Source of the DNA: Escherichia coli
GTDB taxonomy: Bacteria; Pseudomonadota; Gammaproteobacteria; Enterobacterales; Enterobacteriaceae
DNA length: 64,000 nt
Assembly (NCBI RefSeq): GCF_045037415.1
Contig: NZ_CP173438.1
Direction: 5' to 3' (one strand)
How positions within the stretch are numbered: the first letter of the stretch is position 1; every line of letters starts with the position of its first letter. The notes below the pieces were generated by a model. It ran no database searches, had not been told where the DNA came from, and saw nothing but the letters and a program-made list of their open reading frames with translations. Shown here in pieces: positions 58,212-60,553 of this stretch. The translations under genes and the position numbers were made by a program.

Positions 58212-58504
58212 GGGTCAGAGTTTATATTGCCGGTCCAATGACGGGATATGAAAATTTCAACCGTGAGGCGTTTCACAAGGCGGAAGAGGAACTGAAACGG
58301 GAAGGGCATACCGTCTTAAACCCGGCAGTACTTCCGGACGGGCTGACACAGCCGCACTACATGGATATTTGCATGGCAATGATTCGTTGTGTGGATGCGA
58401 TTTACATGCTGAATGGCTGGCAGCGGTCAGCGGGCGCTAAGGCAGAGCTGGCACTGGCGGAGAAACTGGGGCATGCAGTGATTTATCAGGAGGTGGCTCA
58501 ATGA
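58208..58504 (+). CDS. DUF4406-type protein (nucleoside 2-deoxyribosyltransferase-like fold)
   Basis: VRVYIAGPMTGYENFNREAFHKAEEELKREGHTVLNP resembles the conserved N-terminus of DUF4406 proteins; GTG start after an AGGAGG RBS is inferred. Confidence 0.5.
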   Translation: MRVRVYIAGPMTGYENFNREAFHKAEEELKREGHTVLNPAVLPDGLTQPHYMDICMAMIRCVDAIYMLNGWQRSAGAKAELALAEKLGHAVIYQEVAQ

Positions 58505-58962
58505 GAGAGGTTAACTATGAGGCGCTTCGTGAGGCAGCACAAAACTATCAGTCGACGCTGGCGTGGTATCAGGCTATCCCGGACAGCCCAAATGCTGAAC
58601 GGGATTGTGATGCGGCTCTTGCTGCGTTTAAGCGTCACATCCGTCATCGGGAAGCGGATATTATCGCTGATTTGCTGGATGGACTGGAAGAAGCAAAATC
58701 ACAACTCAAAGAGCAGCGTGAGTATTACGAAGGCGTTATCTCTGATGGGAGCAAGCGTATTGCTGAACTGGAAGCGCGGGAAGTTCAATTACCGACTCGC
58801 TACGACCTTCGATATGGACACCCGATAAATGCAGATGAGCGACATGTCATGATACCTAAAGAAAATGGCAGTTGGCTTTACCTGATTGACCTAGAACACG
58901 CATTACGCGTCTCTGGCATTCGCATCAAAGGAGAGGAGCATGGAAATAAAACCAGAGGATGA
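58501..58962 (+). CDS. Hypothetical prophage protein
   Basis: 153-aa ORF, start overlaps the upstream stop; no recognised domain. Confidence 0.4.
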   Translation: MREVNYEALREAAQNYQSTLAWYQAIPDSPNAERDCDAALAAFKRHIRHREADIIADLLDGLEEAKSQLKEQREYYEGVISDGSKRIAELEAREVQLPTRYDLRYGHPINADERHVMIPKENGSWLYLIDLEHALRVSGIRIKGEEHGNKTRG

Positions 58963-59296
58963 GTTAAGCAATATCGTTTTATTTCCGGTAAAAGAGGATG
59001 ACCCTCGTAATCAGGTTAATTTTCTTTATGAGCCATCGGAAAGACCATATTGTCATCACGCCTCTGTCCGGGTTGACGAAAAAGAGCGTCAGGTCCGCTG
59101 TAAAATCTGCGGTGCAGTTGTGGAGCCATTTGACTGGATGCTCTCTGTGGCGAAAAGAGAAACCAGACTGGCAGATGATGTAAGGCACTTGCGCCAGGAG
59201 GAGCGGGAAAGGCGAAAAAATATAGAAAAGCTAATTCAGATTGAGCGTAACGCGAAAGCGCGGATACGCAGGGCGACAAAATCCAGAACTGAATAA
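58940..59296 (+). CDS. Hypothetical prophage protein with possible zinc-ribbon
   Basis: 118-aa ORF with CHH ... CKICG spacing and a basic C-terminus. Confidence 0.4.
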   Translation: MEIKPEDELSNIVLFPVKEDDPRNQVNFLYEPSERPYCHHASVRVDEKERQVRCKICGAVVEPFDWMLSVAKRETRLADDVRHLRQEERERRKNIEKLIQIERNAKARIRRATKSRTE

Positions 59297-59389
59297 TTAA
59301 ATTTAGCTCTGTTAAAAATTTAATCCTTAACCGGAGGGATTTCTGCACCCTCAGAACATCAGGAGGCCGCCCGAAAGGGCGGTAGTTAA

Positions 59390-59572
59390 ATGCGAAAGTT
59401 TAAAATAATTATTGAAACGGGAATAGCCGGTGGAGATTTCGAGAATGAATTCGAAGTGGATGATGATGCGACGCCTGATGAAATACATGACGAAGCAAAA
59501 GATATTTTCTTTAACTACTGCAATTACTCATATCACGAAATAAAAGACGAAGAGGAAGAGCAAAATGGCTGA
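59390..59572 (+). CDS. Small acidic hypothetical protein
   Basis: 60-aa ORF preceded by GGAGG. Confidence 0.3.
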   Translation: MRKFKIIIETGIAGGDFENEFEVDDDATPDEIHDEAKDIFFNYCNYSYHEIKDEEEEQNG

Positions 59573-59741
59573 TTTTGGTTCAACTAAATACAACGTCAGT
59601 TTTGAAGCATGGCATGAACTGTTAATGGACTATGCAGAGTTACGTGGTGGCAGTGCTGCTGATGCTGAAGCATGGCGTGATGATTATGAAGCAGGAAAAA
59701 CTCCGGTCGAAGCATATTGTGATGAGTGGGGCGATGAATGA
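59565..59741 (+). CDS. Small acidic hypothetical protein (not in the ORF track, under 60 aa)
   Basis: 58-aa ORF MADFGSTKYNVSFEAWHELLMDYAELRGG... filling the gap between neighbours, with overlapping start and stop codons. Confidence 0.3.
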   Translation: MADFGSTKYNVSFEAWHELLMDYAELRGGSAADAEAWRDDYEAGKTPVEAYCDEWGDE

Positions 59742-60253
59742 GCGAGATTAATTATCAGGAAGGGCATGAAACGGCAGGGCAGGCAAAACCAGTTGCATGG
59801 CGATATCGCTACGTGAAAAAAGACGTTACAGACTTTCAGGGGAAGCCGTGGGCTGGTGACTGGAAATATGTACCGACAAAAGAGGATTGTAACGACAGGC
59901 CGAACTATGAAATTCAGGCCTTATTCATCGGCCCGCCAGTCCCGGTGACATCAGAAGGACTGGTTAAAGCCGTGCGCTTTTATGAACAGGTAAAGCGTGA
60001 GAATCCGCCAGTCGAAACAGGAGCATGGAAGGATGCTGTTGACTGGGTGCTCAGAGAGGCCTGCTGCGCTGCCATTCTGGGTAAAGCCGACAATCCACCA
60101 GCATCCGGCAATCAGGTTAGCGAATTAACAATGTGGGTTAAACGACTGGTCAGTCAACTGAAAAAAGCTCAGCCGGACTGCAAATTACCGGAGAAGGCGA
60201 TGGATTACCTGAAACGAAATGGACTGATAAGCGTGGAGGATGTTTTACGATGA
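59738..60253 (+). CDS. Hypothetical prophage protein
   Basis: 171-aa ORF; no recognised domain. Confidence 0.4.
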   Translation: MSEINYQEGHETAGQAKPVAWRYRYVKKDVTDFQGKPWAGDWKYVPTKEDCNDRPNYEIQALFIGPPVPVTSEGLVKAVRFYEQVKRENPPVETGAWKDAVDWVLREACCAAILGKADNPPASGNQVSELTMWVKRLVSQLKKAQPDCKLPEKAMDYLKRNGLISVEDVLR

Positions 60254-60373
60254 ATATTTAGACTAAAGAGTTTGTAACGCTATGTAAGTGATTTTTTCTG
60301 GTTTAGATATTTATATGTCCGGCCAAATTGAGGTGTGTTTAAATGTTATTGCACATTGATTGTAGGGGGAATA

Positions 60374-60553
60374 ATGAAAAACGCATTGCAGTTTTTGTTT
60401 GTTGCGTTCTGGTTGTTCGCATCATGTATGCCCATCATCTTCACAGCAAGGTATATGGAAAAAATTGATGTTTTGATATTAATGTTTGGACATATAAATG
60501 CCCTTTTTTTAGGGGTGTTCATGGCGGTCATGTGCATTGAATACTGGCGGTAA
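60374..60553 (+). CDS. Small hydrophobic membrane protein
   Basis: ATG at 60374 after a GGGGGA RBS; two predicted TM helices; the track ORF starts at 60335. Confidence 0.3.
   Translation: MKNALQFLFVAFWLFASCMPIIFTARYMEKIDVLILMFGHINALFLGVFMAVMCIEYWR

Follow-up and report, generated by a model that had tools for sequence, protein, structure and literature searches.

Organization of the locus

Between a DUF4406 gene and hok, the window (the whole 64,000-nucleotide stretch of Escherichia coli DNA analyzed here) carries a run of small open reading frames (Table 1). The run is real but ordinary: a Rac/Qin-type lambdoid prophage of E. coli has here a set of five small early genes, possibly with a sixth. 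The initial annotation had placed seven consecutive ORFs at this site; the run lies between the borders it named and the sizes it gave are right, but six ORFs are present. Upstream lie replication genes, a DnaT-like gene, P, DUF1627, DUF977 and DUF4406, and downstream hok/sok (Rfam RF01794, 106.7 bits), rem, DUF968 and a DUF1133 Q-like gene. Of the two nearest upstream neighbors, DUF977 falls into a phrog named 'Ren-like exclusion protein' and DUF4406 is nucleoside 2-deoxyribosyltransferase-like. The mok frame of the adjoining hok locus is truncated in the window.

Table 1. Coordinates of the ORF run and its borders (positions in the window)
Feature	Position	Strand	Remarks
DUF4406 gene	58208-58504	+	upstream border of the run
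ORF1	58501..58962	+	153 aa
ORF2	58940..59296	+	118 aa
Intergenic element	59317..59384	+	AGGAGG end plus hairpin
ORF3	59390..59572	+	60 aa
ORF4	59565..59741	+	58 aa
ORF5	59738..60253	+	171 aa
ORF6, candidate	GTG 60335 or ATG 60374 to 60553	+	72 or 59 aa
hok	60812-60967		downstream border of the run

The overlapping start and stop codons noted earlier were confirmed. An ATGA is shared at the junction of the DUF4406 gene with ORF1 and again at that of ORF4 with ORF5, the last 23 nt of ORF1 are also the first of ORF2, for which ORF1 contains a GGAGAGGAG ribosome-binding site (RBS), and ORF3 and ORF4 overlap by 8 nt (ATGGCTGA). Gaps of 93 nt and 81–120 nt lie 5' of ORF3 and ORF6, respectively, and no promoter-like or terminator-like sites were predicted within the run.

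ORF1–5 are annotated as coding sequences by PGAP (the NCBI pipeline) in 100%-identical E. coli genomes, and all five are placed in PHROG families (phrog_250, phrog_1621, phrog_1997, phrog_519 and phrog_660, respectively). Across ORF2, ORF3, ORF4 and the N-terminal module of ORF5, pN/pS was 0.08–0.25. Because they combine PGAP annotation, diverged relatives and purifying selection, ORF1–5 are genuine, conserved genes under purifying selection. These genes are members of catalogued phage families that occur in hundreds of genomes. Neither outcome that the initial annotation had held against its own reading was found: the ORFs did not match phage housekeeping families, and ORF1–5 are clearly conserved coding sequence.

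ORF1 and ORF5

By sequence, ORF1 is a compact Ead/Ea22-like coiled-coil protein. It scored 46.1 bits against the Pfam family PF13935 (Ead/Ea22-like; cutoff 27, E = 9.5e-12) and matched phrog_250 with E = 1.3e-40, and PGAP names it 'ead/Ea22-like family protein'. From N to C terminus it comprises the box MREVNYEALREAA, the coiled coil KSQLKEQREYYEGVISDGSKRIAELE, a variable C-terminal domain and the conserved tail GIRIKGEEHGNKTRG, whose DNA also holds the RBS and start of ORF2. Alignment to lambda Ea22 gave 38% identity over 127 aa (E = 1.6e-16), the two proteins having in common the N-box, the EQREYYEGVISDGSKRIA coiled-coil segment and a GIRIKGE tail. ORF1 fits the three-part plan of Ea22, with a short N-terminal region, a central coiled coil and a separate C-terminal domain (PMC10834534), and its coiled coil is 87% identical to ArgO145 gp18. 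A match to MucB_RseB (23.6 bits, cutoff 22.3) overlaps the coiled coil and was taken as spurious, although the MucB_RseB name appears in some RefSeq records.

ORF5 matched phrog_660 (E = 4.2e-75) and is made up of two modules, a composition also seen in the DNA mosaic map. The N-module (aa 1–115) occurs as a separate 119-aa gene as well, with 87% identity to that of 689R5. The 45-aa C-terminal module (ELTMWVKRL...NGLISVEDVLR) recurs in other small proteins that the same accessory regions encode; it is 76% identical to the C-terminus of ArgO145 gp10 and further matched phrog_924, phrog_8171 and phrog_30109. At its N-terminus, MSEINYQ resembles the Ea22 N-box (16–23 aa, E 0.15–0.49), and aa 84–114 gave a sub-match to phrog_250; ORF5 is not in PF13935, having no Pfam match at E ≤ 0.1. 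The counterpart of ORF5 bears the annotation 'frameshifted; internal stop' in three further E. coli genomes. Several related prophages thus carry ORF5 as a pseudogene, so at least this module is dispensable and may be decaying.

ORF2, a putative zinc ribbon followed by a basic helix

The earlier guess that one of the proteins is a zinc ribbon found support in ORF2 (pI 8.9). After a conserved N-terminal motif (ExELSNVVxFP), its candidate ribbon ligands are arranged as C38-x-H40 ... C54-x2-C57 and are followed by a single long, strongly conserved basic helix (LRxEExxRRxNIEKLIQIERNAKARIRR). We found 151 homologues across Enterobacterales, the lowest identity being 46%, and C38, H40, C54 and C57, together with helix residues, were invariant in the 43 homologues compared, down to 46% identity. 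The AF2 model (pLDDT 73.5 overall and >90 in the helix) has strands at 43–46 and 51–54 and a helix at 63–117, and places the four putative metal ligands on these two strands, as on the two knuckles of a beta hairpin. ORF2 matched phrog_1621 with E = 2e-56, its pN/pS was 0.08–0.10, and L0139 of phage 933W is a distant member of the same family (hhalign probability 98.3%, E = 1.2e-14).

ORF2 stayed below the Pfam threshold for the TFIIB-type ribbon PF08271 (21.6 bits vs cutoff 29), its best Foldseek match in the PDB was a generic TFIIB ribbon (E = 0.21), and Pfam gave no match to TraR/DksA (PF01258), the ligands being CxH...CxxC and not C4. A 12-residue likeness to lambda Ea8.5 (CHH..V.VDE) failed in hhalign (probability 6%), and Ea8.5 homologues in the PDB were not matched by ORF2 in sequence or profile searches. 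Among all the ORFs, the sole PADLOC match was one of ORF2 to MTase_II at chance level (E = 0.013).

ORF3, ORF4 and the intergenic element before them

Two small acidic proteins had been noted in the run, and ORF3 and ORF4, each with a pI of 4.06, are these proteins. ORF3 is a DUF7167 protein (Pfam PF23768, 52.1 bits vs cutoff 24.4, covering profile positions 1–60 of 60), carries the PGAP name 'DUF7167 family protein' and matched phrog_1997 (E = 1.2e-30). In its AF2 model (pLDDT 86–93 over aa 1–40), a small domain of beta-beta-alpha fold is followed by an acidic tail. Dozens of stand-alone relatives share 31–66% identity with it, tandem-duplicated forms occur too, and its pN/pS was 0.15. ORF4 is an acidic, predicted three-helix protein (AF2 pLDDT about 90) with the family consensus sFEEWHxxLxxxAxxxGGSAADxDAWRxDYDAGKTPEEAWxDEWG. 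It aligned to the C-terminal part of the phrog_519 profile (E = 2e-22), a Pfam scan of 25 family members placed none of them in a family, and its stand-alone relatives lie at 34–60% identity, with a pN/pS of 0.10–0.25. A protein of 540 aa, P0306, with nine apparent ORF4-like repeats proved to be a W-rich low-complexity artefact.

We also considered ORF3 and ORF4 as an obligate pair. The two genes are found apart in other phages, which leaves such a pair unsupported: a relative of ORF4 follows gpA in P2-like prophages, and a relative of ORF3 lies within a RecT/GamL operon. Among the homologues there was no natural ORF3-ORF4 fusion save one frameshift product, and a model of the fused proteins was uninformative on contact between them, since homologues had been paired at random.

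The intergenic element upstream of ORF3 finishes in AGGAGG and a CCGCCC-GAAA-GGGCGG hairpin, both at 59361–59384 and 5–8 nt before the start codon of the next gene, and its predicted RNA fold has a free energy of -18.1 kcal/mol (z -2.4). The element is portable, standing upstream of ORF3 here, of gp12 in ArgO145 and of a 155-aa gene in mEp460. It is also where recombination has separated the ORF2 module from the ORF3-4 module: genomes with ORF2 only and genomes with ORF3-4 only break there. No Rfam family matched the element.

ORF6, a candidate gene in an AT-rich insert

The initial annotation had described a two-helix membrane protein at the end of the run. The ORF is present and has hydrophobic stretches at aa 5–24 and 32–56, but its status as a gene is not established. 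ORF6 sits in an insert of 34% GC (60254–60595) that is missing from related phages, has an AGGGGG RBS-like site 5 nt upstream, and is confined to Escherichia/Shigella at ≥76% identity, with some variants frameshifted. The sampled records among the 1,584 E. coli genomes carrying the spacer had no PGAP coding sequence at ORF6. Substitution patterns, tried as an arbiter of the coding strand, could not decide, with a pN/pS of 0.41 for ORF6 vs 0.35 for an antisense ORF (60346–60537) that is also open. We keep ORF6 as a candidate only, because it and the opposite-strand ORF both stay open; there may be no gene at this site, or the coding sequence may lie on the complementary strand. No family for ORF6 emerged from Pfam, PHROGs, NCBIfam or PADLOC, Hok/Gef (PF01848) and other toxin families included. 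In another Rac-type phage, its slot is taken by a different 87-aa gene.

Structural and functional searches

Searching the ORF1–5 sequences against all PDB chains gave nothing meaningful, and profile searches of the PDB with the family alignments of ORF2, ORF3 and ORF4 gave no match. With the AF2 models of ORF3 and ORF4, Foldseek reached a best E of 1.1 in the PDB, and in BFVD the AF2 models matched only uncharacterised phage proteins. NCBIfam and PADLOC contained no real matches for the ORFs. Enzyme domains were likewise absent from the block ORFs in Pfam, NCBIfam and PADLOC, and the AF2 models of ORF2, ORF3 and ORF4 are small non-enzymatic folds.

Distribution and mobility

Module frequencies differ among the 5,426 complete E. 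coli genomes (836, 1,225, 294 and 1,551), with the entire array in 273. ORF1 at ≥80% cover accounts for 836 of these, and the ORF2-ORF3-ORF4 core for 1,225, about a quarter, ST131 and Stx phages included. ORF5 is full-length in 294, and its N-module occurs in about 2,099. In the Stx2a phage ArgO145, the exo-xis region, between exo/ssb and int, has the order Ea22-like/ORF2/ORF3/ORF4/Ea22-like at 93–98% protein identity. Prophages of Serratia, Yersinia and Klebsiella carry distant ORF2 homologues within true nin regions, after NinG, NinH, RusA or YbcO and just upstream of Q. In phage 933W, the ORF2-family gene L0139 adjoins hokW.

Discussion

The initial annotation had found no function that could be assigned from sequence. 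For molecular function this still holds, but families can be named: ORF1 is Ead/Ea22-like by Pfam, ORF3 is a DUF7167 protein and ORF1–5 all belong to PHROG families. The reading that we favor, with moderate confidence, has the run as one polycistronic unit in the place of the lambda nin region, made up of early accessory genes that are mobile and non-essential and whose products would act by binding and not by catalysis.

Such a block would be built from independently mobile modules (ORF1; ORF2; ORF3 and ORF4; ORF5; and the AT-rich insert with ORF6), which would be swapped between phages, and between leftward and rightward early operons, at conserved junctions. The Ea22 N-box, the GIRIKGE tail and the SD-hairpin intergenic element are the candidate junction sequences for this exchange. 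From the layout, induction or infection would start transcription at the early rightward promoter, and the genes would be translationally coupled. [quoted passage not shown] The analogy with Ea22 would extend to ORF1 only, and loosely to ORF5; a pro-lysogenic phenotype and tetramerisation have been described only for Ea22 of lambda and phi24B (PMC7093339). 'Binds something' is a weak mechanism and fits several rival roles.

With the lambda/P22 nin region (ren, ninA-ninI, ninX/Y/Z) the block shares the P-to-Q position, the tight packing with overlapping stops and starts, and a Ren-like DUF977 gene upstream, and ORF2 homologues of other genera stand amid NinB, NinE, NinG, NinH, RusA and YbcO before Q. 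Unlike that region, it has no recombination or resolvase functions, and ORF1–6 gave no match to the Nin Pfam families (NinB, NinE, NinF, NinG, NinH and NinX). The earlier description of the run as nin-like applies to its position, and to the presence of distant ORF2 homologues in genuine nin regions, but not to its gene families. The exo-xis region of lambda and Stx phages (ea22, orf60a, orf61, orf63, orf73 and ea8.5) resembles the block in having an Ea22-type gene with N-box, coiled coil and GIRIKGE tail among small, early, non-essential ORFs of variable content. In contrast to the exo-xis region, the block is not between exo and xis but follows the replication genes in the rightward early operon; it lacks homologues of orf60a, orf61, orf63 and ea8.5, and the C-terminal domain of ORF1 differs from that of lambda Ea22.

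Likeness to the P22 ea genes (eaA-eaI and ead) and the Ead_Ea22 family lies in the formal membership of ORF1 in PF13935, and ORF5 and its neighbors in related phages share short N- and C-terminal motifs and a mosaic make-up with genes annotated Ead, Eae or EaA, whereas ORF5 is below every Pfam threshold. To our knowledge, the P22 ea genes have no known function either. As a small, early, putatively zinc-binding protein with a long helix, ORF2 may be likened to the TraR/DksA zinc-finger regulators (lambda Orf73 and 933W L0141), and in 933W the ORF2-family gene L0139 is two genes from TraR-like L0141. It differs from them in its C-x-H...C-x2-C ligands in place of C4, in a helix that comes after the ribbon, and in the lack of a PF01258 match.

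The initial annotation had remarked that nin-like regions often contain genes for host takeover or anti-defence. A binding role would also suit early anti-defence proteins: one or more of the small proteins, most plausibly acidic ORF3 or ORF4 or the zinc-ribbon candidate ORF2, would act by mimicry or direct binding against host restriction, CRISPR or abortive infection and so shield incoming or induced phage DNA. ORF3 and ORF4 have pronounced acidity (pI 4.06), and in this, in their small size and in being early genes they are comparable to Ocr, ArdA and anti-CRISPRs. Their relatives are dispersed over temperate as well as virulent phages, a distribution typical of counter-defence cargo. The gene content of the slot is variable, and the neighboring DUF977 and DUF4406 genes are accessory too. 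However, ORF3 and ORF4 are single 55-aa domains, below the classical DNA mimics Ocr and ArdA in size, and show no detected sequence or fold similarity to such proteins; our sequence, profile and fold searches of the PDB led to no solved anti-defence protein or other solved structure. Kuttervirus members of phrog_519 have been machine-predicted as anti-CRISPRs (PMC9409062), but this sole anti-CRISPR link is an unvalidated classifier score, and the literature that we found did not connect Ea22, DUF7167 or the ORF accessions with counter-defence. On balance, we consider an anti-defence role unlikely. Similarly doubtful is the proposal that the ORF2-ORF3-ORF4 core includes at least one early phage effector of a novel type, with a fold unlike solved structures. 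Acidic ORF3 or ORF4 would then be candidates for an inhibitor of defence systems, and ORF2 for a zinc-ribbon protein that regulates nucleic-acid transactions of the host or phage.

We give little credence to the block, or part of it, as lysogen-benefit or prophage-maintenance cargo, with ORF6 as a small membrane toxin or exclusion peptide that acts together with the adjoining hok/sok addiction module, and the remainder as superinfection-exclusion or host-physiology factors that the resident prophage expresses. Rac/Qin-type prophages are often defective and retained, the run abuts hok/sok as the 933W ORF2-family gene abuts hokW, and the low GC content of the insert around ORF6 is typical of cargo genes that were acquired independently; another Rac-type phage has a different small gene in this slot. 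Yet ORF6 has no Hok/Gef similarity, ORF1–5 are soluble and within the early lytic operon, and neither ORF6 nor the other ORFs of the run are bracketed by a sigma-70-like promoter or a terminator, which leaves independent expression in the lysogen unsupported. That the ORFs are mostly decaying remnants of a domesticated prophage, devoid of current function, is quite improbable as well: ORF5 is frameshifted in several related prophages, ORF6 has frameshifted variants and no distant homologues, and the adjoining mok frame is truncated, but ORF2, ORF3, ORF4 and the ORF5 N-module show strong purifying selection, the ORF2, ORF3 and ORF4 families reach across genera or far past E. coli prophages, ORF1 is related to lambda Ea22, and functional Stx-converting phages carry the same cassette.

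Returning to the mobile accessory block that we favor, the finding as it stands carries little weight, the genes being catalogued, uncharacterised prophage genes from the 'dark matter' of lambdoid accessory regions. The value of the ORF2-ORF3-ORF4 core lies in its members as candidates for a first function in three widespread phage protein families. Since this core is very common, strongly selected and without a structural relative, a modest expression and deletion screen could provide that first function. For lambdoid phages, the locus means that the Ea22-centred 'exo-xis' cassette of Stx phages is not bound to the leftward operon, and that its modules move between early operons at conserved junctions.

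Layout and selection of the small open reading frames

Between the DUF4406 gene and hok we found six plus-strand ORFs of the sizes described in the initial annotation, which had counted seven (see the table below). The tight coupling it had proposed is borne out by stop/start overlaps at four junctions: an ATGA is common to DUF4406/ORF1 and to ORF4/ORF5, ORF3 and ORF4 overlap by 8 nt, and ORF1 and ORF2 by 23 nt, with a GGAGAGGAG site within the ORF1 tail. No promoter-like or terminator-like sites were found within the run. A 2.77-kb stretch recurs at 100% identity in many E. coli chromosomes, and on these copies PGAP calls ORF1-5 as CDSs and none at ORF6. 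Measured against diverged copies, pN/pS was 0.08-0.10 for ORF2, 0.15 for ORF3, 0.10-0.25 for ORF4 and 0.18 for the N-module of ORF5; ORF1-5 are thus genuine genes.

Features of the run and its borders (window positions)
Feature	Position	Strand	Description
DUF4406 gene	58208-58504	+	5' border of run
ORF1	58501-58962	+	153 aa
ORF2	58940-59296	+	118 aa
68-nt intergenic element	59317-59384	+	two hairpins
ORF3	59390-59572	+	60 aa
ORF4	59565-59741	+	58 aa
ORF5	59738-60253	+	171 aa
ORF6 segment	60254-60595		342 nt, 34% GC, between ORF5 and hok/sok leader
ORF6	60335 (GTG) or 60374 (ATG) to 60553	+	72 or 59 aa
hok	60812-60967	+	3' border of run
Terminator-like hairpin	60997-60974	-	
Terminator-like hairpin	61036-61053	+	T-run after it

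Prophage setting

The host element is a Rac/Qin-type lambdoid prophage, in which the run takes the position of the lambda nin region. At the identical locus of E. coli THO-003, genes for exonuclease, DUF1482, dicB, Rha, repressor, Cro/CI and YdaT are followed by DnaT-like, P, DUF1627, DUF977, DUF4406, the run, hokD, rem and a hypothetical gene, then by DUF968, DUF1133 and the lysis and terminase genes. Directly 5' of the run (57804-58504) lie the DUF977 gene, which bears the PHROG label 'Ren-like exclusion protein' and is named LygF in some phage records, and the DUF4406 gene, whose product is nucleoside 2-deoxyribosyltransferase-like (phrog_355). Both genes are accessory and joined to the run by overlapping stop/start codons.

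The Rfam match to the sok/hok leader (106.7 bits) spans 60643-60814, so ORF6 lies outside the hok transcript. Judged against mok of phage Rac (E. coli 442/2, MN652886) and 933W, the mok frame (60756-60815, plus strand) has a 2-nt deletion just past its ATG, leaving an upstream ORF of 19 codons that ends in a TGA overlapping the start codon of hok (ATGA); hok coupling may thus run by termination-reinitiation in place of full-length Mok. Two terminator-like hairpins lie 3' of hok (60976-61057), and the weak, below-threshold Rfam matches there (isrK, 27.4 bits; rsmX, 23.7 bits) probably reflect no more than the terminator region of hok.

Families and folds of the products

ORF1 is an Ead/Ea22-like member (PF13935, 46.1 bits, cutoff 27; phrog_250, E=1.3e-40), with 38% identity to lambda Ea22 over 127 aa (E=1.6e-16). 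The two proteins share an N-terminal box, a coiled-coil segment (EQREYYEGVISDGSKRIA) and the tail GIRIKGE, but differ in their C-terminal domains. Ea22 is described as having a short N-terminal part, a coiled coil that forms tetramers and a C-terminal domain that varies, and as pro-lysogenic, with no known target (PMC10834534, PMC7093339, PMC8614690).

ORF2 belongs to phrog_1621, with relatives in E. coli, Klebsiella, Kluyvera, Yokenella, Salmonella, Erwinia, Serratia, Pluralibacter and Yersinia at identities down to 46%. The family alignment shows no variation at C38, H40, C54 and C57 and almost none in the C-terminal helix, and AF2 models a small beta-hairpin ribbon with a single long helix (63-117, pLDDT >90). 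Foldseek returned only generic zinc ribbons, led by TFIIB (E=0.21). L0139 of phage 933W, just upstream of sokW/hokW and near the TraR-like L0141, is a distant member (hhalign probability 98.3%). Prophages of Serratia, Yersinia and Klebsiella carry other distant homologues within genuine nin regions, after NinG, NinH, RusA or YbcO and one small gene before the Q antiterminator.

ORF3 matches DUF7167 (52.1 bits, cutoff 24.4); ORF4 matches phrog_519 and no Pfam family. An exhaustive HMMER search with the concatenated pair gave 130 representatives, which fall into two distinct families; nearly all stand alone, with lengths of 50-70 aa and identities of 31-66%. AF2 gave confident small folds for the fused construct (ORF3 beta-beta-alpha, ORF4 three helices), of which only the intra-domain signal is usable because homologues were paired at random. 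Neither model had a PDB fold match, and BFVD matches were uncharacterised phage proteins only, some from virulent phages. One ORF3 relative lies within a RecT/GamL operon. In P2-like prophages (loci L011-L014, 4001-4347), a 53-aa ORF4 relative directly follows replication gene A, at the edge of the region holding tin and old in P2. That region is a hotspot for defence genes.

The full length of ORF5 aligns with phrog_660 (E=4.2e-75), and the protein is modular. A separate 119-aa gene in phage 689R5 matches residues 1-115 at 87% identity; residues 127-171 share 76% identity with the C-terminal end of a further small gene, found in 689R5 and ArgO145.

Module exchange and a recurrent junction element

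In the Stx2a phage ArgO145 a corresponding series (Ea22-like, ORF2, an additional gene, ORF3, ORF4, Ea22-like; 93-98% protein identity) lies between exo/ssb and int, which is the exo-xis region, in the leftward early operon. The modules differ in frequency among 5,426 E. coli genomes: ORF1 occurs in 836, the ORF2-4 core in 1,225, full ORF5 in 294, the ORF6 spacer in 1,551 and the whole array in 273. Breakpoints coincide with conserved junctions, namely the Ea22 N-box, the GIRIKGE tail and the 68-nt intergenic element.

This element, with further copies at two other loci (L008, 6665-6750; L018, 1501-1567; local coordinates), ends in AGGAGG directly followed by a CCGCCC-GAAA-GGGCGG hairpin; a start codon lies 5-8 nt past the hairpin, about 22 nt past the Shine-Dalgarno site. 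The genes 3' of it are unrelated (ORF3 here, gp12 in ArgO145, a 155-aa gene in mEp460), and where its variants have C-to-T changes, G-U pairing is preserved. No Rfam family matched it; its role could be that of a portable element for translation initiation or a junction.

ORF6 and a variable slot

The low-GC ORF6 segment is missing from 689R5; at this position related phages have either some 73 nt or, as in another Rac-type phage, a different gene of 87 aa, differences that mark a variable cargo slot. The spacer is present in 1,584 of 5,426 complete E. coli genomes (~29%), with no annotated CDS in the sampled carrier records. E. coli TA280 apparently has two diverged copies, separated by a scaffold gap. 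Relatives of the ORF6 protein are confined to Escherichia and Shigella (at least 76% identity), some frameshifted. Against the most diverged copy (84% nucleotide identity), pN/pS was 0.41 for ORF6 and 0.35 for an antisense ORF (60346-60537) that is also open and shares its wobble register. The sense frame is preceded at 5 nt by an AGGGGG site, runs in the direction of the operon and encodes two clear hydrophobic stretches; as a candidate small membrane peptide it is plausible but unproven.

Interpretation

On the best-supported view, the run is a polycistronic block of early accessory genes, mobile and non-essential, drawn from the same gene pool as exo-xis/ea regions but placed here in the nin position. 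No catalytic domain was found in any product of the run. The products are all small, whether of the oligomerisation, zinc-ribbon or acidic single-domain type, which points to binding as their mode of action; we infer, as is assumed for Ea22, that they would bind host or phage macromolecules.

Decay is plausible for ORF5, whose equivalent is annotated as frameshifted in three other E. coli prophages, and for ORF6; selection and breadth exclude it for ORF2-4. An anti-defence role is possible, especially for ORF3 and ORF4; its sole support lies in properties of a general kind and in an unvalidated score that an anti-CRISPR classifier gave phrog_519. No known inhibitor or defence family was matched by PADLOC, PDB sequence/profile searches or Foldseek.

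Pfam, PHROGs and RefSeq WP accessions already cover all five genes (ORF1-5), as uncharacterised families, and these genes are identical in hundreds of genomes; the run is an ordinary finding. Being very common, under strong constraint and without structural assignment, the ORF2-4 core makes a reasonable target for a small functional screen.
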